This document shows, piece after piece, positions 1 through 39,324 of a DNA stretch of 64,000 nt. Positions within the stretch are counted from its first letter, which is position 1, and each line of letters begins with the position of its first letter. The position numbers were made by a program, and so were the translations under genes. The notes below the pieces were generated by a model that was given only the letters and a program-made list of their open reading frames with translations, made no database searches and had not been told where the DNA came from. Location of the stretch: IMG/VR virus record IMGVR_UViG_3300032285_001268, positions 32,001 through 96,000 of that record. One strand, written 5' to 3'. The stretch is from a virus.

Positions 1-101
1 TTGACCTGCTTGGGCAAGTATAAAGTTAAATGCTTGGGCAAAGCAGACGATTGACATTTTGAGCAAAGTATAGTATAATTGTTTTTTAAGGAGCGAAACT
101 T

Positions 102-458
102 ATGCAAGCAACACAGTTTAAAGTTAGCAAAAAGCTAACACTAGTAGGCGTTACACAAGAAGACGACACTACTTGTACAGAGTACAAGTGCAAAGTAAAA
201 GTGCAACTAGCAGGCGACAGTATTTGGGACTGTAATTTAAAAACAGTTACAATTAAAGAGATACACATTGCAGAGACAGACTGGGGCGATGGCGACACTA
301 ACATACACATTGCAGTTGTACACACAGGCGGTGACGACAGCTGGCGCATATACACAGACAGCGGATTTGAGGCTGCTGTTAGCGACTTGCTAGGGACAGA
401 CGTTAGTTTTACAGAGCAGGGCATGCAAGACGACGGCTACGCGAGTATGGAGTTGTAA
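102..458 (+). CDS. Hypothetical early protein (118 aa, acidic)
   Basis: ORF with its own promoter and GGAGCGAA RBS. Confidence 0.8.
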   Translation: MQATQFKVSKKLTLVGVTQEDDTTCTEYKCKVKVQLAGDSIWDCNLKTVTIKEIHIAETDWGDGDTNIHIAVVHTGGDDSWRIYTDSGFEAAVSDLLGTDVSFTEQGMQDDGYASMEL

Positions 459-526
459 TACATAGCGCACTTGACTTTTTGGGTTAAGTGCGCTATAATT
501 AACACTTACACACAGCAGGAGCGAAT

Positions 527-853
527 ATGTTTAATGCAAAAGATTTAGGCAAGCAGTTTATTAAGTTAGTGCAAGCTAAAGACACAGACTTAGTAGAAGA
601 TATTGTTGACTACGACGGCGAGGATACTTACTTGCTAGACTGTTATGTAGACGACGGCGAAGCTACAGACTATGCTAGCATAGACGAGTTAATTGCTAAA
701 GGCATTGACGGAATTGAAACTGTAGATACTGTAACAGTAATGGGTAGCGCAAGCGGCGACACACGCTGTTACAGCAATACTGTTACAGCAATAGTACTAG
801 ACGATGGTACTAAGTGGATGGATGCGGCATACTACGATTTAATTTTTGCTTAA
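527..853 (+). CDS. Hypothetical early protein (108 aa, acidic)
   Basis: ORF with promoter 471-499 and RBS 518-525. Confidence 0.8.
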   Translation: MFNAKDLGKQFIKLVQAKDTDLVEDIVDYDGEDTYLLDCYVDDGEATDYASIDELIAKGIDGIETVDTVTVMGSASGDTRCYSNTVTAIVLDDGTKWMDAAYYDLIFA

Positions 854-862
854 GGAGACTGT

Positions 863-1051
863 ATGAGCAACATGAGCAAAGCAATAGCATTGCATAAGGC
901 AGTGCAGATGTTAGAGGAAGTAGACGCACTAGTGCAAAAAACACTAGGGGCTAGTGACGACTGTTACGATGTGCATTGTGCGCTGGAGGACTTGCAGGAT
1001 ACACTTGCAGGTTTTGCAGAGCAGTTAGAGGAAATGCAAATAACAGAGTAA
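863..1051 (+). CDS. Hypothetical early protein (62 aa)
   Basis: ORF with AAGGAG RBS. Confidence 0.75.
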   Translation: MSNMSKAIALHKAVQMLEEVDALVQKTLGASDDCYDVHCALEDLQDTLAGFAEQLEEMQITE

Positions 1052-1132
1052 AGTGTAGGGCTTTTGGGCAAGCTGGTTGACAGTTTGCCCAAATCGCAGT
1101 ATACTATAGGCTAAGTTAACAAGGAGCGAACA

Positions 1133-1435
1133 ATGTTAAACATCAGCAAAATCGTAAAGGTCTACAACGGCAAAGTAGGTTGCATGTGCGGGTGTGGCGG
1201 CAAGTACAGCTACACAGCTGACGGGGCTACAAACTATGGCCCAGGCTATGACGTCTCCGACATGATTAACGAGCGTAGTGTACGCATTATTACAAAAAAG
1301 ATCCTCAGCAATCCTCTTGTCAAGTTTGAAGACAATTATGCTTATGTAGAGGACCGTGCCCGTAACAAGATGCAAATGGTTGTGTTCAAAGAGCCACAAG
1401 AGGTCTACAGCCCATTTGACACTTGTAACAGCTGA
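1133..1435 (+). CDS. Hypothetical early protein with CMCGCGG motif
   Basis: ORF with promoter 1077-1105 and RBS 1123; sequence YNGKVGCMCGCGGKY. Confidence 0.8.
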   Translation: MLNISKIVKVYNGKVGCMCGCGGKYSYTADGATNYGPGYDVSDMINERSVRIITKKILSNPLVKFEDNYAYVEDRARNKMQMVVFKEPQEVYSPFDTCNS

Positions 1436-1473
1436 CAGTATAATTAAAACTTAAACACAGCAAGGAGCGAACC

Positions 1474-1719
1474 ATGCAGGTTAAAGAGCTAATTGAAGAA
1501 CTCAAGTACATGGACCCAGATGCCGAAGTACACTTCGCCTATAACTATGGCGATCACTGGCGCACTGAAGTGGCCCCAAAGGTCAGTCGGGTGCAGTCGG
1601 GTGCAGTGGAGTTTAGTGACTACCACCGCATGGACAAGGTAGCTGAAGAGGACGAGTGCTGGGACGAAGATACTGGCGATTGGAAAGAAGACGTCCGCAG
1701 GGTTGTGATTATTGATTAA
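1474..1719 (+). CDS. Hypothetical early protein (81 aa)
   Basis: ORF with promoter 1416-1444 and RBS 1464. Confidence 0.8.
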   Translation: MQVKELIEELKYMDPDAEVHFAYNYGDHWRTEVAPKVSRVQSGAVEFSDYHRMDKVAEEDECWDEDTGDWKEDVRRVVIID

Positions 1720-1774
1720 CCCGTAGAACTGAAGGGGATTTGACAAGAGTCTCCTTTGGTGCTATAATTGAGTT

Positions 1775-1964
1775 AAGTTAGAAATTAGGGGTTACCTACA
1801 CCGTTAGGCCCTTGGAGAGGTGGAAGCGTTCCGACGGGGACCTAGTATCCAGGGCAAGAAGGCAGACCTTCGGGCGAAGCTGGCGGGTAGAGTAGGCTGT
1901 AATGACGAAGGCAACTGACGCCCTGGAGACGGTCCTAGGCAGTTAGACCGGAGTTCCCCTAGTT
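1775..1964 (+). ncRNA. Candidate structured non-coding RNA (~190 nt), family unknown
   Basis: Own consensus promoter (1740-1768), no RBS-led ORF, GC-rich. Closing stem 1783-1791/1956-1964, internal stems, and two hairpin loops (AACTGAC, GGCAGT) that are complementary to each other. Confidence 0.65.
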
Positions 1965-2023
1965 GACAACACTATCATTTGGTTGTATAATACATTTTTC
2001 AACAGTACTTAAAGGAGCGAACG

Positions 2024-2515
2024 ATGGGTACACGAAGCATGATTGCTATTCAAAATCCACATAGCAAACAAATCCGCGCAGTCTACTGCCACTGGGATGG
2101 CTACTTGGAGCACAACGGCGCTATCTTGCAGAAGCACTATGCCGCAAGCCCTAAAGTCAACAACCTTATTGCCTTAGGCGACTTGTCTAGCCTGCGCCCT
2201 GAGATTGGTGTGCAACACGCATTCAGCTCGCTTGATGTACCCAAGCAAGAGCAAGAGGCTTACGATAAAGAGCACGGCAACAGTTGCACGTTCTACGGAC
2301 GTGACAGAGGCGAGAAGGACGTGGGCTTTAAGGTGTTTGACACGCTGGCTAAGGCTTGCGATCACTACACTTGGAGCGACTACTACTACTGCTTCAAGTA
2401 CACTAAGGCCAGCGACTACACAGTTGGCGAGTGGCACTACAAGAAGAACGGCGAGCGTTGGAAGAAGCTGGCTCCTGCTATTGCTAAACTTGATCCAAAG
2501 GAGTGTGCAGAATGA
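2024..2515 (+). CDS. Conserved phage hypothetical protein (MGTRS...YCHWDGY type)
   Basis: N-terminal MGTRSMIAI and YCHWDGY motif, common in phage early regions; promoter and RBS present. Confidence 0.8.
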   Translation: MGTRSMIAIQNPHSKQIRAVYCHWDGYLEHNGAILQKHYAASPKVNNLIALGDLSSLRPEIGVQHAFSSLDVPKQEQEAYDKEHGNSCTFYGRDRGEKDVGFKVFDTLAKACDHYTWSDYYYCFKYTKASDYTVGEWHYKKNGERWKKLAPAIAKLDPKECAE

Positions 2516-2727
2516 AAAAGGTAATTGTGCGCACAGAACTATATCAGGAACTTGAGGTTCCTGATAGCTGGGATAGGTATGATGTATACGATTTCCTAGC
2601 CGAGAACGAGAGCTTCCGTGAGGCTTTCCAAGGTGTAAGTAACCAAGATCAAACAGCCCGCATCCTAGACTTGGGTGTGGTTAATGAAACAGTAACAGAG
2701 ATGGGAGAAGAAGCATATGACGACTAA
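2512..2727 (+). CDS. Hypothetical protein (71 aa)
   Basis: ATG at 2512 overlaps the upstream TGA (ATGA coupling). Confidence 0.7.
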   Translation: MKKVIVRTELYQELEVPDSWDRYDVYDFLAENESFREAFQGVSNQDQTARILDLGVVNETVTEMGEEAYDD

Positions 2728-2896
2728 GGCCGGATATTATCGCAAGAAGGCTATGAGTGACAGCAGGTTTGCCACACTCTATGAGGACCCTACCTACGAG
2801 TTGCCCGAGGACAAAGAGTTTGACGGCCCGGGATTTATTGATGTGACAGGCTGGACAGCAGAAGAAGTGCGCCGCCTGGGTCACGCAGACGAATAA
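2717..2896 (+). CDS. Hypothetical protein (59 aa, below track cut-off)
   Basis: Manual translation MTTKAGYYRKKAMSDSRF...GHADE*; overlaps the previous stop. Confidence 0.6.
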   Translation: MTTKAGYYRKKAMSDSRFATLYEDPTYELPEDKEFDGPGFIDVTGWTAEEVRRLGHADE

Positions 2897-2913
2897 CTAG
2901 TTCGCTCCTAGTT
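2895..2913 (+). promoter_or_regulatory. Hairpin displaying anti-RBS sequence TTCGCTCC
   Basis: Stem AACTAG/CTAGTT, loop TTCGCTC; 2900-2909 GTTCGCTCCT is the reverse complement of AGGAGCGAAC. Confidence 0.6.
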
Positions 2914-2930
2914 GCCCTTGAGGCCGGCAC

Positions 2931-2957
2931 GACCCCCTCCGAGATGGGGGTCACTTT
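2931..2957 (+). terminator. Probable intrinsic terminator
   Basis: GACCCCC/GGGGGTC stem followed by ACTTT (short U tract). Confidence 0.55.
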
Positions 2958-3067
2958 ACAGCTAGACTGTGGCTTTTTTGCCACACTACCAGACCAGACC
3001 CCGCTGTAGCGCGGTTGACGCCCAAGCCAAAATCCTTTATAATTACTACATAATGAAGGAGCGGGCA

Positions 3068-3208
3068 ATGAAGATCACTATCAAAATACCAAACAAAACT
3101 AGGGCACACCTAGTTCTATTTTGCAAGGACACACCCTTCAAGCAGAAGCGTGTAGAGAGCAAGATTAAATATAAACGTCAACCTAAGCACAAGGGGAAAG
3201 AGCTATGA
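3068..3208 (+). CDS. Small basic hypothetical protein
   Basis: ATG 3068 after promoter 3015-3043 and GGAGCGGG RBS; Lys/Arg-rich. Confidence 0.7.
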   Translation: MKITIKIPNKTRAHLVLFCKDTPFKQKRVESKIKYKRQPKHKGKEL

Positions 3209-3453
3209 AGGGCCTAATCACCAACCAATGGGACAGGGATAACCTTAACTTCCTGCTCAATACCAAAGACAAAGATCTAAAGGATTGGCATGCACAGGCA
3301 GACGCAGACGATCTAGCCTATGCTCAGGAACTCTTGGCCGCCTACAGCCTAGAGCTGAAACTTCAGGCTGAAGAGCTCCGTATTGAGTGCGAAATGGATC
3401 TAAAGGGCGACTTTAGCCAAGCATTAGCCGTGATTGACAAGATCAAGTTTTGA
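3205..3453 (+). CDS. Hypothetical protein (82 aa)
   Basis: ATGA overlap with the previous ORF. Confidence 0.75.
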   Translation: MKGLITNQWDRDNLNFLLNTKDKDLKDWHAQADADDLAYAQELLAAYSLELKLQAEELRIECEMDLKGDFSQALAVIDKIKF

Positions 3454-3490
3454 TACTATAATATACACTTAAACAACAAAGGAGCGAACT

Positions 3491-3637
3491 TTGAAGACAA
3501 TGACACAGAAACTAGAGCGTGATCGCTTAAATCGGTTAAAGCGTGAGCGTAAAGCCAATCGTCAGTTTGTGCTAGGTGCAGTGATGCTGGCAACTATCTT
3601 TGTAACCCCCTTGGCCGTTGCGGCCTTACTTTCTTAA
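3491..3637 (+). CDS. Small membrane protein (48 aa)
   Basis: TTG start after GGAGCGAA at 3481; basic N-terminus, hydrophobic C-terminus FVLGAVMLATIFVTPLAVAALLS. Confidence 0.6.
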   Translation: MKTMTQKLERDRLNRLKRERKANRQFVLGAVMLATIFVTPLAVAALLS

Positions 3638-3652
3638 TCATAGGAGCGAACT

Positions 3653-4240
3653 ATGCCTAATTGGTGCAACAACTATCTCGAATTAACTCACGATGATCCA
3701 GCAATGATCACTCGTGCCCGTAAGGCCTTTGCAGACGGACGACTGCTGGACGAATTTGTGCCAGTGCCAGAGAGCCTACACATCGTAGCAGGTCGAGTAG
3801 GTGACGACAACGATCCCAAGCAGATTGAGCTTGAGGCACAGGAAAAGGCCAACCTTGAGACACATGGCTACGCCACTTGGTATGACTACTGCGTCAACGA
3901 GTGGGGCACCAAGTGGGATGTAGGTGGTGATGACTACAGCCCTGCAGATGAAAAAGACCCTAATCATACTCGTATGAGTTTTGATAGTGCCTGGGCACCC
4001 CCTGTGCCTGCTATGGCCAAGTTCCAGGACTTGGGCTTCCGAGTCAAGTTGATCTACTGGGAGTCGGGCATGTGCTTCGCAGGCCTGTTTGACGAGAACG
4101 GTGATGACTTCTATGAACTTGGCGGTATGACTGCTGATCAAGTGGCTGAAGAGATCAACCCAGAGATCGACGAGTGCATGTGCATCAGCGAAAGTATGCG
4201 TGAATGGGAAGAAGAAAACGCTGAAGAGGAAGAAGAATAA
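3653..4240 (+). CDS. DUF1281/YubB-like (ferredoxin-like fold) protein
   Basis: MPNWCNN N-terminus, WYDYCVNEWGTKWDV and FDSAWAPP motifs. Confidence 0.7.
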   Translation: MPNWCNNYLELTHDDPAMITRARKAFADGRLLDEFVPVPESLHIVAGRVGDDNDPKQIELEAQEKANLETHGYATWYDYCVNEWGTKWDVGGDDYSPADEKDPNHTRMSFDSAWAPPVPAMAKFQDLGFRVKLIYWESGMCFAGLFDENGDDFYELGGMTADQVAEEINPEIDECMCISESMREWEEENAEEEEE

Positions 4241-4301
4241 CGGTTGACTGCCTTACCAAAAGGCAGTACAATTAGAATTAGTAAAACAACAAGGTACAGT
4301 A

Positions 4302-4448
4302 ATGAAAACCAACAAAGAAAAGAACTTAGAACATGATGCAAGGATGCAGGCCAAGGTTAGACCAAAGCCTGTAGAGTATAATTGGGAACCATTGGATGCA
4401 GTTGTAAAGCAATGGCGCCAAAGGAGTTATCAGAATGAGCAGGCTTGA
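4302..4448 (+). CDS. Hypothetical protein (48 aa)
   Basis: Manual translation MKTNKEKNLEHDARMQ...; downstream of promoter 4244-4272. Confidence 0.55.
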   Translation: MKTNKEKNLEHDARMQAKVRPKPVEYNWEPLDAVVKQWRQRSYQNEQA

Positions 4449-4716
4449 ATTCTATGCTCGTCCGTTAGTTGCCTTTGATGCACACCTAAAAGAACATCGT
4501 CAGATCTACTATCAGTTTGTCAAAACGATGAGTTGGGGTGCTAGTCCATATAGGTTTATCTGCCCAGAAGATCACGGTGGCGATTTGGTTACCATGATCC
4601 AAAGACAGATCAACGACTACTACATCCACAAAGAATTTGGCGATCGACCACCGAAACCTGAGCCTTTGGTTCGCCAAAAAAGAAAGAAAACGGTTGACAA
4701 GGGCTCAAAAAAGTAA
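4435..4716 (+). CDS. Hypothetical protein (93 aa)
   Basis: ORF with AAGGAG RBS. Confidence 0.75.
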   Translation: MSRLEFYARPLVAFDAHLKEHRQIYYQFVKTMSWGASPYRFICPEDHGGDLVTMIQRQINDYYIHKEFGDRPPKPEPLVRQKRKKTVDKGSKK

Positions 4717-4778
4717 TATAATTTGAACATGCTAAGAAATTGGCATTAATTTTAACACACACAGAAAGAGGTAACAAA

Positions 4779-5144
4779 ATGGCTACAGATAAAACATTTA
4801 ATGTATTTGGTGTTTCTAAACTCAATGGCGAGTACAAAGTTCGTTTCGCGAATGACGTGATGCGTATCAAGGTATTGGCCAAACATGGTCATGAAGATAT
4901 CACTCTTGTTGACTTGGAGAAGTCAGTGAGCAAGTATGAAGGTATCAAGGCTATTGCCACTATGCCAGAGTTTGCCAATGCGGCTGCTCAGAGTGCGATC
5001 GCTGAATACTTGGAAGAAAAAGCACCTAAGGCTAAGGTCTCTAAGCCTGTGGCAAAAGCCGCGAAGACTCCGGTAGCGAAGACTACCAAAGCGCCTGCGA
5101 AAGCAGTTCAGAAAGTTACTGAGAACGAAGACGCTCCTTTCTAA
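4779..5144 (+). CDS. Protein with Lys/Ala/Pro-rich (histone H1-like) tail
   Basis: Likely start ATG 4779 after AGAGG; C-terminal KAPKAKVSKPVAKAAKTPVAKTTKAPAK. Confidence 0.75.
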   Translation: MATDKTFNVFGVSKLNGEYKVRFANDVMRIKVLAKHGHEDITLVDLEKSVSKYEGIKAIATMPEFANAAAQSAIAEYLEEKAPKAKVSKPVAKAAKTPVAKTTKAPAKAVQKVTENEDAPF

Positions 5145-5147
5145 TCT

Positions 5148-5330
5148 ATGTTCATTCAGTACGAAGTCTGGGGCACACTCAACGGGCATGAAGAGCTCCT
5201 TGAGTGTGTAGCAACCCTAAAAGAAGCAGAAGAGTTGGCAGAAGAAGAAAGGTTCTTTGCTGATGAGATTTGGATCCTAGAGGACACGGACGGCGACCTG
5301 AAAGAAGTTAAGCGTTACCAGGGCCTATAG
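5148..5330 (+). CDS. Hypothetical acidic protein (60 aa)
   Basis: ORF whose last codons and TAG overlap the tRNA 5' end. Confidence 0.65.
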   Translation: MFIQYEVWGTLNGHEELLECVATLKEAEELAEEERFFADEIWILEDTDGDLKEVKRYQGL

Positions 5331-5397
5331 CTCAGTTGGTTAGAGCAGAGGACTCATAATCCTTTGGTCCCTGGTTCGAGTCCAGGTGGGCCCACCA
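5321..5397 (+). tRNA. tRNA-Ile2 (anticodon CAU, lysidine type) with encoded CCA
   Basis: Cloverleaf GGGCCTA...TGGGCCC-ACCA, anticodon loop CTCATAA, TTCGA T-loop; C4-G69 and C5-G68 (TilS determinants) favour Ile2 over Met. Confidence 0.9.
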
Positions 5398-5400
5398 CTC

Positions 5401-5430
5401 AAAGGTGTTGTAGAAATACAACACCTTTTC
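5401..5430 (+). terminator. Intrinsic terminator after tRNA
   Basis: AAAGGTGTTGTA-GAAA-TACAACACCTTT followed by TC. Confidence 0.8.
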
Positions 5431-5484
5431 TCTTGACATTTTGGCTAGGCCGTGCTATACTATAGGCTAAGTTAACAAGGAGCA

Positions 5485-5679
5485 GTGATGGGTTACAGAG
5501 TTCTTAACACCGTAGACACGATGCGTGACAATTATGGAGCACGTAAAGGCCTAGAAGGTCCTTACAATTTCAACGGCAGAGTGCTTTACTATGATCCTAA
5601 GGAAGGTAAGTATTACGATCCCAGCACAGACTTCTACGTGAGTCATGACGAATATTTTCGGTTGACAGGCCTCATCTAA
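5485..5679 (+). CDS. Hypothetical early protein (64 aa)
   Basis: Promoter 5433-5461; YYDPKEGKYYDP motif. Confidence 0.75.
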   Translation: MMGYRVLNTVDTMRDNYGARKGLEGPYNFNGRVLYYDPKEGKYYDPSTDFYVSHDEYFRLTGLI

Positions 5680-5718
5680 ACCTGTATAATTATACACATA
5701 CACAGCAAGGAGCGAACC

Positions 5719-5913
5719 ATGCAAGTACACTTTATCGACACAGGAACACAGCAAGACTATGGCTTCAAAGAAGTAGAAGTCCACAGCTTCAAAATGGATC
5801 ATGCTGATGCACCCTACGCCATCGTTAGCAACCCATTCTTTCCAGGAGACAGCCTACGGGCCGAGTATAACTTTTACAACGGTAGCCTGCAATGGACGGT
5901 TGACGTCAGTTGA
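5719..5913 (+). CDS. Hypothetical early protein (64 aa)
   Basis: Promoter 5662-5690, RBS 5709. Confidence 0.78.
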   Translation: MQVHFIDTGTQQDYGFKEVEVHSFKMDHADAPYAIVSNPFFPGDSLRAEYNFYNGSLQWTVDVS

Positions 5914-5952
5914 TTTTGGCAGTATAATTAACATATTAACAAGGAGCGAACC

Positions 5953-6153
5953 ATGTACGATATAGTCCAAAACCCAATTCCATTCAATGGATTCTTTTAC
6001 ACACCAGAATCATTTGCCCAACTGCAAGAGCGCATCGAACAGTTGCCAGCAAAGGAACGAGCACTTGTCTACACATTCGTAACACAGGCTATGAATCTGT
6101 GCTATCGAGAAGTAGAAGACAAGATCTTAAGCCGTGAAATCTTTGCACAATAA
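5953..6153 (+). CDS. Hypothetical early protein (66 aa)
   Basis: Promoter 5900-5928, RBS 5943. Confidence 0.78.
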   Translation: MYDIVQNPIPFNGFFYTPESFAQLQERIEQLPAKERALVYTFVTQAMNLCYREVEDKILSREIFAQ

Positions 6154-6162
6154 GGAGCAGTT

Positions 6163-6315
6163 ATGACTACAGCATTTGAAGCAGTTATCTACGCACTCTA
6201 CTACACATGGCCCATGTGGGCTTTCCTGGCCTTGCTGAGTCTAGCCCTGTTCGTAGAAGAAGGCATCAAAGCCTACAGCCTGCGCAAGATGGTTGACAAC
6301 CCCACGCTTTGGTAA
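6163..6315 (+). CDS. Small membrane protein (50 aa)
   Basis: Manual translation MTTAFEAVIYALYYTWPMWAFLALLSLALFVEEG...; AAGGAGCAG RBS. Confidence 0.65.
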   Translation: MTTAFEAVIYALYYTWPMWAFLALLSLALFVEEGIKAYSLRKMVDNPTLW

Positions 6316-6351
6316 TATAATTAAGACTTAAACAGCAACAAGGAGCGAACC

Positions 6352-6600
6352 ATGAAGCTAAACGAAACCCGCACCGTCCCATATGGCACCATCCAGTATG
6401 TAGAGGACGAGGACTTTGGCAAGTGCTATCTAGTGCGCCACAACTTCATCAAACGCGAGATCTTCGCTGACACAGTCAAAGAAGCCAAGCAAGAGCTGGA
6501 AGAACTGCAGAAGGAAATGTCAGAGCTGAACTCTGCTATCTCTAAGCTTCAACGCTATGGCTACAAGGTCTACAAAGAAGTTGACAGCCTGTACGCTTGA
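6352..6600 (+). CDS. Hypothetical early protein (82 aa, coiled-coil C-terminus)
   Basis: Promoter 6293-6321, RBS 6342. Confidence 0.78.
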   Translation: MKLNETRTVPYGTIQYVEDEDFGKCYLVRHNFIKREIFADTVKEAKQELEELQKEMSELNSAISKLQRYGYKVYKEVDSLYA

Positions 6601-6641
6601 GCATATAATTAACACTTACTTAAACAACATTGGAGCGAACA

Positions 6642-6965
6642 ATGATTACAGCAGAACAAATCCAAGCAGGCAAGACTCTAGCAGAAGCGGCTGGTCGTGC
6701 AGAGTACGCCAAATGGGGCGGTGACCGTGGTGCTTGTGGCTTTGCTTGGGTAGAGGTCTACGTGGACCGTACTAACAGCAAACAGGCCAAAGAGCTGATC
6801 AAGGCAGGCTTCCGCAAGGACTACAAACCAAAATGCTTGAGCATGTGGGATCCAGCAGGCTTGCCCGTGCAGAACATCGACATCAAAGAAGCAGGCGCTT
6901 ATGCCTATGCCAACTACCTTACAGCACTGGGCTTGCGGGCCTATGCGGGTAGCAGACTAGACTAA
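6642..6965 (+). CDS. Conserved phage hypothetical protein (GACGFAWV motif)
   Basis: Likely start ATG 6642 after GGAGCGAA at 6632; promoter 6581-6609. Confidence 0.8.
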   Translation: MITAEQIQAGKTLAEAAGRAEYAKWGGDRGACGFAWVEVYVDRTNSKQAKELIKAGFRKDYKPKCLSMWDPAGLPVQNIDIKEAGAYAYANYLTALGLRAYAGSRLD

Positions 6966-7038
6966 CCAAAACGTTAGGGCACATGCCCTAACTGTAGTAT
7001 AATTAATTTATTAACAGCGTAACAAAGGAGCGTAACAA

Positions 7039-7920
7039 ATGGTAGGTAAAGTCGTAACTAGTAAGATGCTAATGGCACTACAGCAAGATACCAAAAGCCT
7101 GGCCCAAGAGCCAGTTAAGAAAGACATCAGCACAGAGACTGATGAGCAGATCCTCAACCGTCTGCGTGATCGCTTTGAGATCTTAGATGACATGACCCGT
7201 GCAGTCAAGAAGGGCGATGTACGTGCTATGATCGTCACAGGCCCTCCAGGTGTGGGCAAGAGCTTTGGCGTTGAGAAAGTACTCAGCAAGCACGATGTGT
7301 TCGCTAACGTAGCAGACGACAAGAAGCTGAAGAAGTACGAAGTGGTCAAGGGTGCGATGAGCGCCATTGGCCTGTACTCTAAACTCTACGAATACTCAGA
7401 TAAGAAGTCAATCCTAGTATTCGACGACTGTGATAGCGTATTGCTTGATGACCTTAGCTTGAACATCTTGAAAGCCGCTCTGGATACCAGCAAGCGCCGT
7501 ATGATCCATTGGAACACAGACTCTAGGCTCTTGCGTTCAGAGGGTGTGCCCAACTCATTCGAGTTCAAGGGTGGTGCTATCTTTATTACCAACATCAAGT
7601 TCGATCACGTCAAGAGCAAGAAGCTACAGGATCACTTGGAAGCACTAGAGTCACGTTGCCACTACCTAGACTTGACTATCGATACAGAGCGTGAGAAGGT
7701 CCTGCGCATCAAGCAGGTAGTTACCGAGCACGGTATGTTAGATGACTATGAGCTGTCAGATGAAGCCAAGCTGGATGTGGTTGCGTTCGTAGATGCCAAC
7801 AAGCATCGCATGCGTGAGCTGAGCTTGCGTACAGTACTTAAGGTAGCAGACCTTAGAGCTAGCTTCCCGGACAAGTGGACTAGCGTAGCAGAGGTTACTT
7901 GTATGCGTGGCAGCCGCTAG
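7039..7920 (+). CDS. AAA+/P-loop ATPase
   Basis: Walker A GPPGVGKS, Walker B ILVFDD, sensor-like FITN, ALESR arginine finger. Confidence 0.85.
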   Translation: MVGKVVTSKMLMALQQDTKSLAQEPVKKDISTETDEQILNRLRDRFEILDDMTRAVKKGDVRAMIVTGPPGVGKSFGVEKVLSKHDVFANVADDKKLKKYEVVKGAMSAIGLYSKLYEYSDKKSILVFDDCDSVLLDDLSLNILKAALDTSKRRMIHWNTDSRLLRSEGVPNSFEFKGGAIFITNIKFDHVKSKKLQDHLEALESRCHYLDLTIDTEREKVLRIKQVVTEHGMLDDYELSDEAKLDVVAFVDANKHRMRELSLRTVLKVADLRASFPDKWTSVAEVTCMRGSR

Positions 7921-7992
7921 GGCTCAGACCCTACATGCCCGTGTAGAGTATACAGAGCAAGCCGGCCCAGACTGGCAGACTCTGTGCAGTGA

Positions 7993-8090
7993 GAACAACT
8001 GACGTGATTCGCTCCCACTAGGTTGTTCGGTAGTGTGGTCCCTGACACCGTAATTCCGATTCGCTCCCGGTTGTGTCAGGGATTTTTTTT
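7993..8090 (+). ncRNA. Candidate 3'-UTR-derived small RNA with two anti-RBS loops; the second hairpin doubles as an intrinsic terminator
   Basis: Hairpin 7993-8028 has loop ATTCGCTCC; hairpin 8039-8082 (10-bp stem) has a loop ending TTCGCTCC, followed by T8 (8083-8090). Confidence 0.65.
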
Positions 8091-8094
8091 GGCT

Positions 8095-8131
8095 GGGGTA
8101 ACCGGGGTGGTGGGGCCAATAGAGGGGTGGG
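8095..8131 (+). other. G-quadruplex-forming motif
   Basis: GGGG at 8095, 8104, 8112 and 8124 with loops of 5, 4 and 8 nt; intergenic. Confidence 0.5.
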
Positions 8132-8283
8132 AGGCTTATATGTTAGCAACTACTAACTTAGCTAGCTAGCGCATGGGTACCGAGCTTTTTTCCACCATCT
8201 AAAAGTTTAAGTACTTCTTTATAATTTTTTACGCGGCAATTTTTTTAGGCTGCAGGACCCATTTCGGGCTATATACTATTACT

Positions 8284-8466
8284 ATGAACAATCAAGACTA
8301 TAACCAAACTGTGCTTATACGTGGTCGTCTATATCGCTATGATCCGGACTTTGATGCCTATTATCGTGTACAGGAGCAGGAAGGTCCCGTGAGTCGTTGG
8401 GCTTGGATTGCCCTCTGTGCTCTGCTGGCCATCGTAGCTTTCTGCATAGAATTTCGTCCCCTATAA
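8284..8466 (+). CDS. Small membrane protein (60 aa)
   Basis: ORF with a C-terminal hydrophobic helix. Confidence 0.65.
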   Translation: MNNQDYNQTVLIRGRLYRYDPDFDAYYRVQEQEGPVSRWAWIALCALLAIVAFCIEFRPL

Positions 8467-8472
8467 GCTACT

Positions 8473-8697
8473 GTGCGCGAATACTACATACTCACGCTAG
8501 ATCCACGTGCCAGAGAAGTTATCACATGGATCGTTGATCACAATATCACCTGTGATGTACACCTTAATCGCACACGTTTTTGGGTTCCAGAAGGAGTATT
8601 ATCTACAGAGTTTCATCTACGCTTCAGTGACTGTTGTCCCCCTGTAGATCCCGCTGATGATCTACTCATTGGGCGCACACGCTACGGCCCATTCTAA
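8473..8697 (+). CDS. Hypothetical protein (74 aa)
   Basis: ORF track; follows the previous gene closely. Confidence 0.6.
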   Translation: MREYYILTLDPRAREVITWIVDHNITCDVHLNRTRFWVPEGVLSTEFHLRFSDCCPPVDPADDLLIGRTRYGPF

Positions 8698-9047
8698 CCA
8701 GCCAAAAGAAAAGCTCCACGAATAGAGCTTAAGGTTGCGGGCACGACCCGTATAGATGATCAAATTTTTACAACACTATGCGTTTGGTGGATTCTCCAAA
8801 TGGCACATTAGTTTGGTTCTCTTATACATAGTATACCCTCCCCTTGTTGTAATAGTATTTACAGATTACACCTAGATTACCGCGTCAAATGGGCTCGTTT
8901 TGCTCCATTAGATCTTTAACCAAATCAGGCCAATTAGGTAGCCTAGGGCAAAAGAGTATACCCCCAATAGCATCAACGCTAGGGGATATAACCAGTGATT
9001 TTCTACTATTTCTTTCAGTGTCATATGATTATTTACTATATACTAGC

Positions 9048-9266
9048 ATGAACACGCACATTTGGCTCACTAAACTCATCGCAGGATTGATCAGCATCTT
9101 TCAAGCTAGTACCTTAAGGGATAGGTATTATTCAGCTCTAAACAGAGTAGAGATCCTGGAAACTGCCCTAGAGGACATAGCTCGTATAAGTGAGTCTAGG
9201 GTAGATTCTAGTGAACGGCACAGGCTGATCAAGGGTATATGCGATAGAGGACTGGATCGAGAGTGA
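9048..9266 (+). CDS. Hypothetical protein (72 aa)
   Basis: Likely start MNTHIW at 9048, immediately after an AT-rich -10-like element. Confidence 0.55.
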   Translation: MNTHIWLTKLIAGLISIFQASTLRDRYYSALNRVEILETALEDIARISESRVDSSERHRLIKGICDRGLDRE

Positions 9267-9354
9267 ATCTTACTGCTAGCGGAACGCTGTGTTTCGCGTT
9301 TTACCGCTACGCTACTTCGTAGCTAGTCTAAAATTTTTCCGCTCGGCTTCGCCC

Positions 9355-9966
9355 TTAAAAATTTGCTGGGCCGCTCCGCTTAGTGTAAACACTCATGCAG
9401 ACTCCATCATTCACGTGAGTGCGTTCCAAATACCAAGTAGGAGTGCGAGTAGCAATCTCAGCCAGCTGTTCCTGCTTGTGTATTAAGACTAGGTGTGCAT
9501 CGTCAGTGGTATAGGCATCAGCTGTGTCTAAGATATAGAACAGGTGTTCAAGTCCAGTGGCGCCTGCGATCACGCTGGCTTTCTTTAGATAGTCATGTGC
9601 TTGGGGCATGGCTGCCCATTCAGCTTCGGTATCGTGCGGGGGATTGCTCATGACTAGGTCAAACTTGGGTGTGGCCACTTCGGGCCAAAAATTTGTGACC
9701 GTGTGTACGTTTAGATTAAGGGTCAGTCTGTTGACTCCCACGCACTGTGCCAGGGGTAGGTCTGTGGCCCATATACCTGCTCGGGGCCATTGTTTTTCAG
9801 CCCATAGAGCCATACAGCCCGTGCCCGTGCCTAGATCGGCTACGGCCTGCTTGGGAGGTAGATCTTTAAGGTGATCTATTAGTTCAGCCAGTTGGGGTAG
9901 GGGTAGGACCACATGCTCGGTGGCTGTTAAGACAAAATCATTCCAGTGTACTTGATATTCCATCAT
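9355..9966 (-). CDS. PrmC/HemK-like SAM-dependent methyltransferase
   Basis: DLGTGTG SAM motif, FDLVMSNPPH (NPPY-type) motif, AGATGL matching the GGxDGL region. Confidence 0.75.
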   Translation of the reverse strand: MMEYQVHWNDFVLTATEHVVLPLPQLAELIDHLKDLPPKQAVADLGTGTGCMALWAEKQWPRAGIWATDLPLAQCVGVNRLTLNLNVHTVTNFWPEVATPKFDLVMSNPPHDTEAEWAAMPQAHDYLKKASVIAGATGLEHLFYILDTADAYTTDDAHLVLIHKQEQLAEIATRTPTWYLERTHVNDGVCMSVYTKRSGPANF

Positions 9967-10011
9967 GTACTTATCGGCCTGACCCCCAGGGTAGATCTGA
10001 TCCTGAGCGGG

Positions 10012-10308
10012 CTAGCCCCACTGTAGTAGGAATAGGGTCTTGTTACGGCTCTGTCTAAATGCCACACAGGCCTGCCAGTATTCTTGTGCTTGACATGTTG
10101 AGTAGGCCCATTCTACCCAATGTGGGCCAGTGTACTTGGTCAGCCAGGATTCTAGTTCAGTGATGTTGTTGATCCAATCCTCTTGATAGTGCAAGGGACG
10201 GTGAGGCCATGGTACTATGGCTAGATGCTCAAAATTATGGTATTCAGGCAAATACATCATACAGTGATAGTTCAATGTACAAGTATTTAATTCCTGATGT
10301 CCTGCCAA
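10012..10308 (-). CDS. Hypothetical protein (98 aa, Trp-rich)
   Basis: ORF in the minus-strand gene run. Confidence 0.6.
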   Translation of the reverse strand: MAGHQELNTCTLNYHCMMYLPEYHNFEHLAIVPWPHRPLHYQEDWINNITELESWLTKYTGPHWVEWAYSTCQAQEYWQACVAFRQSRNKTLFLLQWG

Positions 10309-11163
10309 TTAAGTGGTAGTTTTAAAATGCGCCTGTTGTGCCTGGCGTATCTTGGCCAATATGCCGGGATCTGTTGCACTGGCCTTGCGGTGTTCAGCTA
10401 AGAGTTCCGGGTCAATTTCGTAACTGCACCATTCCTGATCTCCTAGGGCAAGGTCGTTCAACATGTCGTCCAGGAATCCTTGACCTAGATCCACACGCTG
10501 ATCAGTCTCGAATGCCTCGGCTAGTTTATCGGTTAGGACCAGATGATTGCTCAAGCACAGATGATTGTAACGGAAATCCACATAGGTTATCAAGCGACTG
10601 TAGTAGTCCTTGCCAGCCAATTGGTCAGATTCATTTTCACTGACAGTACATAGATCACCCCAGCTGACATGTATACTGGGAAAACTTCTGCTGGCGCCTA
10701 TTTGAAATTGGAAACCCAGCAGGACCTGTGGCTTGCGCAGTCCCCTTATCTGTATCATCTGGCTTAGCCATGCCAGTCTTTGTTCTACGCTGTCTTGATC
10801 CAGCACTGGATCTTGTAGGCGCTCTGTATAGAGTTTGGCTGCTTCGAACCAAGGTTTCAACCCGATCTCTTTAAACTTCCAGATGTACTCGTAACGGCTA
10901 ATTTCCGGATAATCTCTGTGATACCATTTACGTGCAGGGTGCGTTAGTACTACCACTAGATAGTCTTCCGGTAGCATATCGGGTATCAGCTGATGCAGTT
11001 GACGCCAGGCCCATTCTTGGCTGGTTCCACGTTGGCTCTTGTTGACTATTTCTTCTACGCCCAGACTTTCAGCTAACCGGCACATCCAAGTGCGTGGGTC
11101 TATATCTTTGTCTTTTTCGGCTGCACTGCTGTAGCTGTCACCAATAATATACAGTTTGCTCAT
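10309..11163 (-). CDS. Putative SGNH/GDSL-like hydrolase-fold protein
   Basis: N-terminal LYIIGDSYS and a downstream G-T-S block; weak. Confidence 0.45.
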   Translation of the reverse strand: MSKLYIIGDSYSSAAEKDKDIDPRTWMCRLAESLGVEEIVNKSQRGTSQEWAWRQLHQLIPDMLPEDYLVVVLTHPARKWYHRDYPEISRYEYIWKFKEIGLKPWFEAAKLYTERLQDPVLDQDSVEQRLAWLSQMIQIRGLRKPQVLLGFQFQIGASRSFPSIHVSWGDLCTVSENESDQLAGKDYYSRLITYVDFRYNHLCLSNHLVLTDKLAEAFETDQRVDLGQGFLDDMLNDLALGDQEWCSYEIDPELLAEHRKASATDPGILAKIRQAQQAHFKTTT

Positions 11164-11167
11164 GCAA

Positions 11168-11629
11168 TTAATTATCTTGCTTGACTGCGTCTCTGCTGTA
11201 GTATTGATAGTTTACTGATGTGGAATTTTCACGTAGGGTAACGGCACCGTTCTTATGATGGAAACGACGAGCCATTTCTGTCTGTGGACTGAGCGTGACA
11301 ATGGCCTTGATGTCCTTGTACTCTTGCTTGAGCCATTCAGCGGCCTGCTTGATTAACTTTTGACCTGCACCCGGACTATAACTCCAAATGGTGTAGAATA
11401 CTGCCACATCCTTGGTATGTCCCAGCTCGACTAGATCAGCTTCATCTTCTGGAATTTCTGTCAGCCACTGCATACAGGTAGCGGCCAAGATCTCTTCTCC
11501 TGCTTTTAGCAAGAGTATTTCGGCCGTTTCGTTAATACGTTGTTCCAACGGGATATGTGGTCGCACCGGATCATCTTTGATCACATGTGCTAGAGGATCA
11601 TTGAGGTCAGTGACGTGGTGCAGTTCCAT
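11168..11629 (-). CDS. GNAT-fold protein resembling the malonyl-CoA decarboxylase catalytic domain
   Basis: AVFYTIWSYSPGAGQKLIK...AIVTLSP...ARRFHHKNG. Confidence 0.5.
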   Translation of the reverse strand: MELHHVTDLNDPLAHVIKDDPVRPHIPLEQRINETAEILLLKAGEEILAATCMQWLTEIPEDEADLVELGHTKDVAVFYTIWSYSPGAGQKLIKQAAEWLKQEYKDIKAIVTLSPQTEMARRFHHKNGAVTLRENSTSVNYQYYSRDAVKQDN

Positions 11630-11677
11630 AAAGTTTTCCTTGATTATTATATGCGTATTTATTAATTCAAGGAAAAA

Positions 11678-13093
11678 TCAAAGGTCATCGCCTGGCAAGT
11701 TGTTGATCAACTCACGAAGTTTACTGCTCTCCACTGTGGCACGTACCTTGGGTGCTGGTGCACCATCTGTTAGTATTTCACCGGTACTTGGTACGATTGT
11801 TTGACGTTGTTTGATACTGTTGAGTAGACTTGATCCTGCCGATTGGCTGTTGTGACTACCGTACCCATCTTCTTCTGCTAGGTCACTGATGCGTAGACTG
11901 TCAATGTCAAACTCCAGATCAATTTTCTGTCCAACACCACTACTACTACGTGTCTTCATCAGTTGTATTTGATAGCGTCCACGCTCACGCATAGCACGGC
12001 TAGTAAAAATACCAAACACGTTATCTGCTGTTTGGATCTTACTTAATCCGCCTGAAATATGACTGTGGTCAAACTCTACTTCTTCCACAGCACCACGATT
12101 CAACTGTGCGGCTGTGACAAACACACAGTTCTTTTCTACTGCTAGATTACGCAGTTCTTCACTGACATACTTGTCCTTGATAAACAAGTCTGCTGGGCTG
12201 ATTTTCTTGCTGATAGGCATCAACAAGTCCAAGTAGTCAACTAAGAGTACATCGACCTTACGGTCCATCTTAATTTCATATTCTTTCAAATAACTACGGA
12301 GATCATTGGCTGTTTTGCCGCTGGGCATGTATTTGACTTGATAAGTTCCGCTCTTCTTACCAATCATTTTAACTTTCATTTCAACGTCATCAAGATTCTT
12401 AAAAATCTCTTTTGTAGGCATACCAGTTATCATAGCATCCATACGCATTGACACTAGTTCTTCTGAAAGTTCAAGTGTTAGGTACACGACATTTAGCCCT
12501 GCCAGTGCCCAGTTCACACCTAGGTTCGCTAGGAATAGCGATTTACCTGCACCTGATCCGCCTGCGAAAATATTCAATTCGCCTCTGTTCATACCACCGA
12601 ACAATTTGTCGTCTACTGATTTCCAACCTGTAGTAACTTGTCCGTTTTTATCTTTGATCTTCATTAGACGTGCTCTAGGGTCAGCAAAGTAATCTGTACC
12701 CATGTCTTTTTGCAGGCCTACCTGTATGGCCTGTTTGATCTTGTCTTCGACAGGACCGTATTCGCCTTTTTCCAGCAGGTCTGCACTTTCAAGAATTGCA
12801 CGTTCTAGACCTTTGTGTCGAATAAAGTTTTCAAACTCTACCAACAACCAATCGTAGTTCTTTTCTTTTAGATCTTGCGGATATTTGAGATCTACACCCA
12901 TTGCGGCATTGACGATATCATATGTGGGTAGCACATTGTATTCTTCAACGTACTTGTTGACAAACTCTGCACTTTCTTGCAAACGTCTATCAAATAGTGT
13001 GTGGTCAAAAATGCTTTGGCACCGAACAAATGTTGCGGCATCACTGAGCATCATTTCCAAGTATAATTTTTGTATATCGTAACCGTATTCCAT
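11678..13093 (-). CDS. gp41: Replicative DnaB-like helicase (T4 gp41-like)
   Basis: Walker A GGSGAGKS, LLVDYLD, TAAQLNR, LMKTR. Confidence 0.92.
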   Translation of the reverse strand: MEYGYDIQKLYLEMMLSDAATFVRCQSIFDHTLFDRRLQESAEFVNKYVEEYNVLPTYDIVNAAMGVDLKYPQDLKEKNYDWLLVEFENFIRHKGLERAILESADLLEKGEYGPVEDKIKQAIQVGLQKDMGTDYFADPRARLMKIKDKNGQVTTGWKSVDDKLFGGMNRGELNIFAGGSGAGKSLFLANLGVNWALAGLNVVYLTLELSEELVSMRMDAMITGMPTKEIFKNLDDVEMKVKMIGKKSGTYQVKYMPSGKTANDLRSYLKEYEIKMDRKVDVLLVDYLDLLMPISKKISPADLFIKDKYVSEELRNLAVEKNCVFVTAAQLNRGAVEEVEFDHSHISGGLSKIQTADNVFGIFTSRAMRERGRYQIQLMKTRSSSGVGQKIDLEFDIDSLRISDLAEEDGYGSHNSQSAGSSLLNSIKQRQTIVPSTGEILTDGAPAPKVRATVESSKLRELINNLPGDDL

Positions 13094-25461: not shown

Positions 25462-26436
25462 TTATCTTCTTGCCAATTCGACTATACGAGCAAGGATTGG
25501 ATCATGTCCAAAAGCATTTGATTCTTGTGTAACAACATTTGAACTATTAGCAACAGGTTTAAATCCATTTGGTGCTCTTGCCGCAATAAGTCTGTCTGTT
25601 AAGTCTGGTTTGCCGCCACCCTTAGTTGCCCATGCTTGATCTTCTGGACTCATAGCCGCATAGATAGCGGCTTGTTTAGGATCATTAGCATACGGATTTG
25701 GCGCTTGCTGAACTGGTGCTGGCTGTGTAGAACTACCATTAGGCGGTTCAGTAGGCTCAGTTCGATTTAATGATGCCAAGTACTGATCGTAAGTCATGTT
25801 ACCTGGCAGTGCGCTAGCGTCTAGTGGCTTTGCCTGGGCAACAGGTGGTACTTGTGTTGGTTTGACTGGATTATAATTACGCTTTACTCCCTTTGGCGGC
25901 GGTATCTCTGGGTGAGCTTTTGCAACTTTATCAGTTGCATCTCCCCATAGTCCGTCAGGCTTAACTCCTGGAAGAGTTTTTTGCCAATCATAAATTGCAG
26001 GATCTCCACCACGTGCTAAACCTGGGCGATCAGTAGTTGTAGTCGGTGCTGGTTGTGTAGCACTCGAACTTGTAGTACTAGCAACAGTAGTCGGCGCCTG
26101 TGCCGCAGGCGCAACTGGTCCAGGGCCTTGAGTTCCGTTAGCCTTTGCTTGTGCAATTAGTGTTTGTGCATTACCAGTTGGATTGCTATTAAGCCATTTC
26201 GTCATTTGATCAGGATTATATTCATCTCCTCCGTGACCAGTAGCTATCATTCCTGCCAAGTACTCGTTTTGTCTCCTCAGTTGAGCAATAGCGTCCTTAG
26301 CACCTGGATTTGTTTTTTCAAGTGAAGTAATAGCTGGAGCTAGAGCAGCCGCTATCTTTGCATTAGTTTCTTCCGCCAATCTAGTTTTTAACTTAGATGC
26401 TAGGTCTACTAATTGTGATTCAGTAATCTTTGTCAT
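25462..26436 (-). CDS. Pro/Ala/Thr-rich protein with a possible peptidoglycan-binding motif
   Basis: Low complexity; WQKTLPGVKPDGLWGDAT resembles the PG_binding_1 DGxxGxxT motif. Confidence 0.55.
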   Translation of the reverse strand: MTKITESQLVDLASKLKTRLAEETNAKIAAALAPAITSLEKTNPGAKDAIAQLRRQNEYLAGMIATGHGGDEYNPDQMTKWLNSNPTGNAQTLIAQAKANGTQGPGPVAPAAQAPTTVASTTSSSATQPAPTTTTDRPGLARGGDPAIYDWQKTLPGVKPDGLWGDATDKVAKAHPEIPPPKGVKRNYNPVKPTQVPPVAQAKPLDASALPGNMTYDQYLASLNRTEPTEPPNGSSTQPAPVQQAPNPYANDPKQAAIYAAMSPEDQAWATKGGGKPDLTDRLIAARAPNGFKPVANSSNVVTQESNAFGHDPILARIVELARR

Positions 26437-38729: not shown

Positions 38730-39324
38730 CTTGAGTGTATAGATCATCAATAGTTTCGTTGTTGTCTAATACATAGTCAAAATTAGTGCCAACCCATGCA
38801 GTTTCGCTAGCGTGTATGCCGTAACTGGCTAGCTTTTCTTTGAACATATCCATGCCCTCGTTGGCGTATTTTGCCACAGCATACCATTCGGGTTCCTCAC
38901 CACGAACTACACGGATAACGATTCCGCCCGCATCTTTGATTGATTTAATTTCGTTAGGGAAACGACAGTCGCTGATAACAATGTCGTCTTTACTATTACG
39001 GAGTTTGTTTTCTAGACTAGCAATCCATATATCATCGTGGAATGCTTTGCGGCATACTTCTGTGCCCCAATATTGTAGTACCCATCGAGGAGTTAAGTTG
39101 GGCATATTCAAGCGTTCGCTCCACCACGGATCTACTTGCTCACGCCATTCGCGAGCAGTTTTTGTTCGGCCTTCTAGCATTGTTCGGTCCCAACCGAATA
39201 CTTGTGCTACTGCATCTTTGAGTGAATTTGCAAACGATTCTCGACGAAAACCGTGAAAGTTAGTAAGATAATCGGCAATAGTATCCTTGCCAGAACCGAT
39301 AAAACCGCACACACCAATAATCAT
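38644..39324 (-). CDS. Deoxynucleoside monophosphate kinase (T4 gp1-like)
   Basis: IIGVCGFIGSGKDT, FANSLKD, TPRWVLQYWGTE, ISDCRFPNE, HASE. Confidence 0.88.
   Translation of the reverse strand: MIIGVCGFIGSGKDTIADYLTNFHGFRRESFANSLKDAVAQVFGWDRTMLEGRTKTAREWREQVDPWWSERLNMPNLTPRWVLQYWGTEVCRKAFHDDIWIASLENKLRNSKDDIVISDCRFPNEIKSIKDAGGIVIRVVRGEEPEWYAVAKYANEGMDMFKEKLASYGIHASETAWVGTNFDYVLDNNETIDDLYTQVKSLVLNRPDATPLPLYAEFADSLHIPS

Follow-up and report, generated by a model that had tools for sequence, protein, structure and literature searches.

The window analysed here is the whole stretch of 64,000 nucleotides formed by bases 32001-96000 of a 185-kb IMG/VR viral contig, the completeness of which is estimated at approximately 50%. 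Because related contigs reach 345-383 kb, the source is identified as an uncultured jumbo phage; it is a freshwater phage with T4-type genes, and a Megablast search against deposited phages returned no match. Positions 1-7920 of the window constitute a plus-strand block of small genes, hereafter the early block, driven by more than 12 sigma-70 promoters that match TTGACA-17-TATAAT almost perfectly. The early leaders (window 1-7038), from the -10 box to the SD, are A/C-rich and nearly free of G, e.g., acacttacacacagcaa, and A/C-rich, G-poor leaders were found in every lineage examined (L171, L175, L183 and L202 among others), tag-less ones included. The last early gene encodes an AAA+ ATPase, and its mRNA bears a structured 3′UTR. 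In the following, the octamer GGAGCGAA, which serves as the RBS of early genes, is called the tag, and its complement TTCGCTCC is called the anti-tag. The features of the locus are as follows.

90-97, plus strand: RBS tag GGAGCGAA of gene 102-458
518-525, plus strand: RBS tag GGAGCGAA of gene 527-853
1123-1130, plus strand: RBS tag GGAGCGAA of gene 1133-1435
1464-1471, plus strand: RBS tag GGAGCGAA of gene 1474-1719
2014-2021, plus strand: RBS tag GGAGCGAA of gene 2024-2515
2895-2913, plus strand: mid-cluster hairpin AACTAG[TTCGCTC]CTAGTT directly past a stop codon, with the octamer at 2901-2908
3481-3488, plus strand: RBS tag GGAGCGAA of a gene starting from TTG 3491
3643-3650, plus strand: RBS tag GGAGCGAA of gene 3653-4240, the sole copy not directly behind a promoter
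5709-5716, plus strand: RBS tag GGAGCGAA of gene 5719-5913
5943-5950, plus strand: RBS tag GGAGCGAA of gene 5953-6153
6342-6349, plus strand: RBS tag GGAGCGAA of gene 6352-6600
6632-6639, plus strand: RBS tag GGAGCGAA, with an ATG at 6643
7027-7034, plus strand: RBS of the ATPase gene, GGAGCGTA, identical to the tag at 7/8 positions
7039-7920, plus strand: last early gene, AAA+ ATPase related to T4 NrdC.10, the mRNA of which bears the 3′UTR
7921-8090, plus strand: structured 3′UTR of the last early gene, 170 nt, with an intrinsic terminator at its end
7993-8028, plus strand: hairpin 1, apical loop ATTCGCTCC with a G-C closing pair, no U-run; its stem class covaries in relatives
8008-8015, plus strand: anti-tag octamer TTCGCTCC in loop 1
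8037-8090, plus strand: hairpin 2 plus T8, an intrinsic terminator whose apical mini-hairpin CCG-ATTCGCTCC-CGG displays the anti-tag
8060-8067, plus strand: anti-tag octamer TTCGCTCC in loop 2

Each of the 11 plus-strand copies of the tag in the window stands 1-4 nt ahead of a start codon, and 10 of them lie approximately 20 nt downstream of a TATAAT or TATACT -10 box. The tagged genes are promoter-proximal in 10 of the 11 cases, and the operon-internal genes have other SDs. Over the whole 185-kb contig the tag occurs 17 times, with 15 RBSs in the early block and two on minus-strand genes. The two minus-strand copies are situated just before an ATG at contig positions 26201 and 112730 (the latter corresponding to window 80730, beyond the window end), and the tag is therefore not strictly limited to the plus-strand cluster.

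An earlier note, made from the letters of the window alone, had proposed that two hairpins behind the last early gene expose in their loops the exact complement of the RBS of 11 early genes, within an 11-nt direct repeat, and that this octamer is present in excess of chance. The complementarity between TTCGCTCC and GGAGCGAA is exact, and the hairpin coordinates and both loop octamers are as claimed, except that the outer stem of hairpin 2 extends to 8037. The direct repeat GATTCGCTCCC lies at 8006-8016 and 8058-8068. On both strands together the octamer has 15 matches, compared with 0.75 +/- 0.86 (maximum 3) in 100 dinucleotide shuffles. As the note had also stated, the plus strand of the early region holds three copies of TTCGCTCC (2901, 8008 and 8060), all in hairpin loops; a fourth plus-strand copy in the window, at 39115, is intragenic. 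Folding the region with RNAfold, which had been put forward as a check, left both octamers of the 3′UTR unpaired in the minimum-energy structure. The outer stem of hairpin 1 is formed by GAACAAC (7993-7999) and GTTGTTC (8022-8028), and an inner stem GTG/CAC closes the 9-nt loop ATTCGCTCC. Hairpin 2 pairs 8037/8039-8048 with 8073-8082, has an inner stem CCG/CGG and scores 61.5 bits with the covariance model R1. The mid-cluster hairpin at 2895-2913 is weak as a free hairpin, and in the 5′ part of the 3′UTR a different hairpin occupies 7952-7987.

Hairpin 2 has the make-up of an intrinsic terminator, namely a G+C-rich hairpin directly followed by a U-run (T8 at 8083-8090), and the same arrangement is found in 51 distinct relatives. 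A simple terminator scan missed it because the scan was limited to loops of 3-8 nt, and within the same limit the scan detected no strong terminator inside the early block. No sigma-70-like promoter was found by scanning the plus strand from 6609 to 8000. Because no promoter of their own precedes them, the hairpins are regarded as a 3′UTR, and because no strong terminator was found inside the early block, a common 3′ end at 8090 is expected for the transcripts of the nested promoters. An Rfam search of positions 1-12000 at E<=1 returned only the tRNA on target, with no match on 7921-8090. The tRNA is a tRNA-Met (CAT) gene within the early block at 5321-5397 (Rfam 72.6 bits; ARAGORN). A reading of the anti-tag loop as a tRNA-like T-loop was dropped: ARAGORN and Rfam gave only this tRNA-Met, and the loop was judged to be without the conserved T-loop adenine. 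The YUNR U-turn motif is reportedly a feature of fast-pairing antisense loops, and the UUCG in the anti-tag loop presumably fits this motif.

Two further observations concern the sequence around these elements. CTCC is approximately 2-fold under-represented on the early coding strand (14 occurrences versus 28 expected in window 1-7920; 1.1/kb versus 1.75/kb elsewhere), and this depletion was discarded as evidence because a 2-fold effect is too weak. Behind the terminator, positions 8091-8283 contain a G-rich stretch (ggctggggtaaccggggtggtggggcc...gggtgggagg) followed by 'cttatatg', 'gcgcatgggtaccgag' and 'ttttttacgcggcaatttttttagg', and these blocks recur in relatives, including L171, which is without the anti-RBS hairpins. 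The stretch is a conserved non-coding element at the junction of the early plus-strand block and the convergent minus-strand replication genes, and its role may be that of a phage-specific promoter or of an origin.

The 3′UTR-bearing gene encodes a protein with a PF13191 AAA_16 domain that is 37% identical to NrdC.10 of Aeromonas phage 25 and 47% identical to its counterpart in PA5oct. In PA5oct the gene lies operon-internally, and an IMG/VR scan seeded from that phage returned no relatives. Public data contain more than 8000 close relatives of this ATPase gene. Among the distinct leaders of relatives, the RBS of the ATPase gene is the exact tag GGAGCGAA in 40 and GGAGCGA[C/T/G] in 35.

The earlier note had held that its proposal would fail if the octamer were not conserved in loops of related phages. 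A protein-seeded scan of IMG/VR and JGI metagenomes provided 160 loci with ATPases 73-92% identical, all belonging to the clade of the window. Among 120 distinct downstream regions, for which the ATPase identity is 74-92%, 114 have two or three copies of GATTCGCTCCC behind the ATPase gene (two in 111, three in 3), and the remaining six have one. The repeat is exact in 229/237 copies, and the stems around it vary and covary. A recurrent variant with an altered third base accounts for five copies, and one more change affects the same position, which is the partner of the last and most variable position of the tag. At the loci with the variant loop GAATCGCTCCC (L024, L029, L031, L032 and L074), no GGAGCGAT RBS was found among the promoter-proximal tags. 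The flanks of the octamer (G-A ... C) are invariant although they are not complementary to the tag, which indicates that the loop is constrained beyond its pairing with the tag. On the target side, GGAGCGAA is the dominant promoter-proximal RBS in every close relative (326 copies; the next, GGAGCGAC, has 68), and all copies counted in the sequence ahead of the ATPase stop are followed by a start codon.

The hairpins themselves are supported by their variability. Each of the 217 distinct contexts folds around the loop, and 202 different 5′ arms occur among them; the native hairpins have a mean of -18.2 kcal/mol compared with -10.9 for controls in which the 3′ flanks were exchanged between loci (p=9e-62). 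A first MAFFT alignment of the terminators lost the helix register. In 27 in-register terminator hairpins, 95.8% of the cells are paired, versus 61.6% in shuffled and 33-48% in slid alignments; these rows were pre-selected for helix register, which inflates the pairing percentage and leaves the variety of pairs unaffected. The covariation score of this alignment is 0.895 versus 0.19, and its doubly changed cells number 110 versus 30. Within the helices, G·U pairs outnumber A·C mismatches by 104 to 14, and this excess assigns the structure to RNA of the plus strand, as does the U-run behind hairpin 2. The G·U against A·C count replaced a comparison of unconstrained fold energies, which favoured the minus strand (135/217) and was judged to be confounded by pairing of the loop and of A/T-runs. 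In 90 distinct relatives the equivalent 3′UTR measures 95-191 nt, and the mean unpaired probability of the octamer there is 0.88, compared with 0.33 for other 8-nt windows. In addition, a second hairpin class, GCTAG[TTCGCTC]CTAGC, is present approximately 5 kb upstream in syntenic positions (L012, L024/L103, L061, L097, L104 and L166), and the mid-cluster hairpin at 2895-2913 of the window belongs to it; the only sequence that it has in common with the first class is the octamer, precisely the segment with complementarity to the tag. Many relatives (L023, L049, L052 and others) have one more conserved hairpin, ACAGC-AAGCAGCCnCUAAGA-GCUGU, within the first 70 nt past the ATPase stop, where the window has a different one.

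Co-variation between the early RBS motif and the loop in related phages had likewise been named as a check, and it was found. A profile-seeded scan produced 80 loci with ATPases 54-73% identical to that of the window in the members checked. In this set, the tag takes the form GGAGC[N]A, and T[N′]GCTCC occurs at most 1.2 kb past the ATPase gene, in most cases within the loop of a hairpin or immediately ahead of one. The tag/loop pair is C/G at 19 loci (e.g., L202, gcctgggagtaggtTGGCTCCggcccaggc), T/A at 12, A/T at 3 and G/C at 4 as well as in the window clade. A maximum-likelihood tree of 102 ATPases was constructed, and the 60 rows with both features were scored: tag and loop are concordant in 56, and the four discordant rows have single or ambiguous tags. 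On this tree the tag switched at least eight times and the loop at least six times, and the switches are nested, with A/T inside T/A and both T/A and A/T inside C/G. Independent-pairs tests for each state yielded 1-3 pairs on supported branches, none of them discordant, which is too few for significance. One base thus passes through all four nucleotides, each time accompanied by its Watson-Crick partner; this pattern is classically taken as the mark of base pairing, and it argues against a protein operator.

The association also holds locus by locus. In other lineages with the tag on the RBS of the ATPase gene itself, 37/38 loci have a complementary motif downstream. The exactly complementary 7-mer is found downstream in 35/39 distinct ATPase-tagged loci, against 0.12 per 1.2 kb in a deliberately generous control, and the three variants of the 7-mer that are not complementary occur only three times altogether. 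Two loci, L184 and L185, have a separate pair, GAGAGGT with ACCTCTC. Five lineages with ATPases 53-67% identical (L171, L175, L177, L179 and L183) have the same promoter and A/C-rich leader design with generic AAGGAG sites, and searches of them revealed no GGAGCGAA, no TTCGCTCC and no covariance-model match; lineages without the tag are thus also without the hairpins. A scan seeded from L177 found no relatives. In L198 and L215, which belong to the lineage with tag A, a second motif, 'ccaATTCGCTCtgg', similar to the loop of the window, lies approximately 50 nt past TTGCTCC; it may be a relic or a second specificity.

Because the loops are exposed and invariant, the stems covary and tag and loop change in a compensatory manner, the core idea of the earlier note, that the loops pair with the RBS shared by the early genes, is strongly supported, and we consider that they very probably do so; its further suggestions, that a terminator-bounded RNA accumulates and silences the whole cassette at once as a timer or negative feedback, or blocks superinfecting relatives, are hypothetical. 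For the loop:tag duplex an energy of -13 to -14 kcal/mol is predicted; the corresponding value for an E. coli-type anti-SD tail on the tag is approximately -11, or -7.6 when a shorter context is used. Every loop type has its cognate tag as the best predicted partner, with a margin that falls to 0.3 kcal/mol for some, and a contact of 8 bp may require a chaperone.

We propose the following model, in which the 3′UTR of the gene for the NrdC.10-like AAA+ ATPase would function as a regulatory RNA element. Its two hairpins, the second of which is the intrinsic terminator of the operon, display UUCGCUCC single-stranded in their apical loops. This octamer would pair with GGAGCGAA, which consists of the SD core GGAG and a lineage-private 3′ extension and resides on promoter-proximal early mRNAs with short, presumably unstructured A/C-rich leaders. 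The 8-bp duplex, predicted to be stronger than SD:anti-SD, would keep the 30S subunit off the RBS and may form a nuclease substrate. All early transcripts from the nested sigma-70 promoters would share the 3′ end at 8090, and another group of transcripts perhaps ends near the hairpins at 2895-2960. The loops could then act in cis on the transcript that contains them, in the manner of icaR, and in trans, on 3′ fragments that are longer-lived than the mRNA bodies, and either route would lead to negative feedback or a timed shut-off of early translation. Repression by pairing, its timing, the choice between cis and trans and a stable fragment are elements that we infer from sequence comparison, and the full model, including repression of early translation, appears likely to us. 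A cis interaction between the 5′ and 3′UTR is at least as likely as a free master sRNA because the most constant tagged gene elsewhere is the ATPase gene that bears the 3′UTR. This suggests that an icaR-like contact between the 5′ and 3′UTR is the ancestral core and that the tag spread to 11-15 early genes in the window clade.

A narrower explanation, which we regard as unlikely, is that the loops pair only with the RBS of the ATPase mRNA that carries them, in the manner of icaR autoregulation, and that the remaining early genes have the tag as a side effect of sharing promoter-leader cassettes. The frequent tagging of the ATPase gene alone in other lineages, with the complementary motif downstream at nearly all such loci, would agree with it, as would the missing separate promoter ahead of the hairpins and the resemblance of the promoter-leader cassettes to each other. 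However, 11-15 genes of the window clade carry the octamer unchanged within leaders that otherwise vary, and the tag dominates the promoter-proximal RBSs of all close relatives. Moreover, the ATPase RBS of the window is itself an imperfect copy of the tag, and long read-through transcripts would bear several tags for each 3′UTR.

It is also conceivable, if quite improbable, that the pairing is real and its effect positive, in that a 5′-3′ contact stabilises early mRNAs or shields them from a 5′-end-dependent or SD-directed nuclease such as a RegB-like GGAG endonuclease. In T4-type phages, RegB cuts GGAG in early SDs. Covariation between tag and loop is equally expected under a protective contact, and according to PMC5737220, the hbs mRNA of B. 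subtilis is stabilised by contact between its 5′ and 3′UTR and so offers a precedent. Nevertheless, a duplex over the SD should block 30S binding, and no homologue of RegB or RegA turned up in the half of the genome that was available; searches of the contig for RegB (PF10715) and RegA (PF01818) gave no match, and neither did the controls, so that these searches were without a working positive control.

That the loops are operators for an RNA-binding protein (of the coat-protein or N/boxB type, or a terminator factor), with an incidental complementarity to the RBS, is in our judgement highly unlikely. Such an operator would fit the invariance of the loop past the eight bases that pair, which extends to its flanks G-A ... 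C and to the G-C pair that closes it, and the position of one motif in the apex of the terminator itself, but it gives no reason for the loop to follow the tag through all four nucleotides or for the second hairpin class to share exactly the octamer. Finally, a DNA-level site, at which a double-strand-binding protein would read GGAGCGAA/TTCGCTCC in either orientation past early promoters and at the end of the cluster, would account for the presence of these 8 bp in the two orientations inside a single 13-kb block and for the switch of the complement in both places, yet it can practically be set aside, as the plus-strand copies are in every case found in the loop of a hairpin whose stem covaries, G·U exceeds A·C in a strand-specific manner and a U-run terminator follows; it is the loop context, and not covariation alone, that disfavours this reading.

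Pairing between the loops and the tags, as we prefer to read the locus, can be compared with several known systems, although a literature search found no described phage system of such a design. The window has the features of anti-SD RNAs as a class, with a motif complementary to the SD region of several mRNAs and the same C-rich motif unpaired in hairpin loops. In phages P1 and P7, the c4 antisense RNA acts on icd-ant through two short loops that pair with sites covering the RBS; c4 is located upstream of its single target in the immunity region of a temperate phage and is released by RNase P. The element described here resembles c4 in being a phage RNA co-transcribed with its target and having loops complementary to RBS sites, and it differs in being a 3′UTR element of a lytic T4-like jumbo phage with many targets. 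In T4, the proteins RegA (a repressor) and RegB (an endonuclease) silence many early mRNAs via the RBS or GGAG; the proposed element would perform the same task with RNA, rather than protein, as the effector.

Among bacterial RNAs, the cuckoo, RSs0680 (CcsR) and alpha-r14 sRNAs of Alphaproteobacteria have 2-4 hairpins with an identical aSD-like loop and variable stems, and the cuckoo sRNAs are chromosomal stress sRNAs co-transcribed with an upstream gene (PMC4615179). The phage element shares with them the adjacent hairpins, within the range of 2-4, with the same anti-SD-like loop motif and highly variable stems, and the placement behind a gene with which it is co-transcribed, whereas the motif is CCUCCUCCC in the cuckoo RNAs and UUCGCUCC here, and the element is phage-encoded, belongs to the 3′UTR of an early gene (that of the ATPase) and is matched to a private extension found on the phage's own RBSs. 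Homology with the cuckoo family was considered and rejected, as the loop here is AUUCGCUCC and Rfam gave no match on the 3′UTR at the threshold given above. In S. aureus RNAIII, hairpin H14 is the terminator. In RNAIII (hairpins 7, 13 and 14) and the Rsa sRNAs with the UCCC motif, C-rich loops base-pair with G-rich SD regions on several mRNAs of related function and block the ribosome (PMC2837412). Conserved C-rich hairpin loops complementary to the SD region of several mRNAs are common to RNAIII and the phage element; RNAIII, unlike the latter, is a 514-nt quorum-sensing effector of unrelated sequence that draws its specificity from extended duplexes or two loop-loop contacts, whereas a single 8-nt tag is common to the whole early regulon of the phage.

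In the icaR mRNA of S. aureus, the 3′UTR contains an anti-SD motif that binds the SD of its own mRNA; this pairing hinders the loading of ribosomes and gives rise to a substrate for RNase III (PMC3868564). A partial likeness to icaR is that in most lineages the gene carrying the 3′UTR has the matching tag: the ATPase RBS agrees at 7/8 positions in the window, exactly in the 40 leaders counted above and with a complementary motif in the other lineages. The difference is that icaR concerns one gene, the motif of which lies 260 nt behind the stop codon, whereas the phage has twin loops, one of them in a terminator, and 11-15 tagged genes. With a different motif and no Rfam match, the phage element is no homologue of cuckoo, RNAIII or icaR. 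We describe it as a strongly conserved candidate regulatory anti-SD RNA backed by covariation.

If the pairing works as proposed, the phage would possess an RNA-only early shut-off consisting of one short 3′UTR element and a tag on each target. In large lytic phages, early shut-off is known mainly through proteins, i.e., T4 RegA and RegB, and transcription-factor takeover. With more than 8000 public relatives of the ATPase, the group of phages that carries the device would be very abundant in lakes. The natural variants of tag and loop provide a ready series of compensatory mutations, with the loop form UUGGCUCC (C to G) and the compensating tag form GGAGCCAA (G to C), and they could serve as sets of orthogonal translational switches if the pairing is true. 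A bolder reading, which we put forward as doubtful, is that the tag-loop pair is a private and evolvable translational address code, in which each lineage combines an SD extension (GGAGC-G/C/A/T-A or GAGAGGT) with a cognate RNA switch whose silencing is confined to the early regulon of that lineage. Different codes are present in the same lake metagenomes (L009 with G/C together with L203 with C/G in 3300027756; L030 and L033 with G/C together with L188 and L250 with C/G in 3300023184), and the code may therefore diversify under selection during co-infection. If such an address code exists, there would be selection for orthogonality to, or interference with, related phages, and the tag-loop pairs would constitute an RNA-based analogue of immunity specificities.
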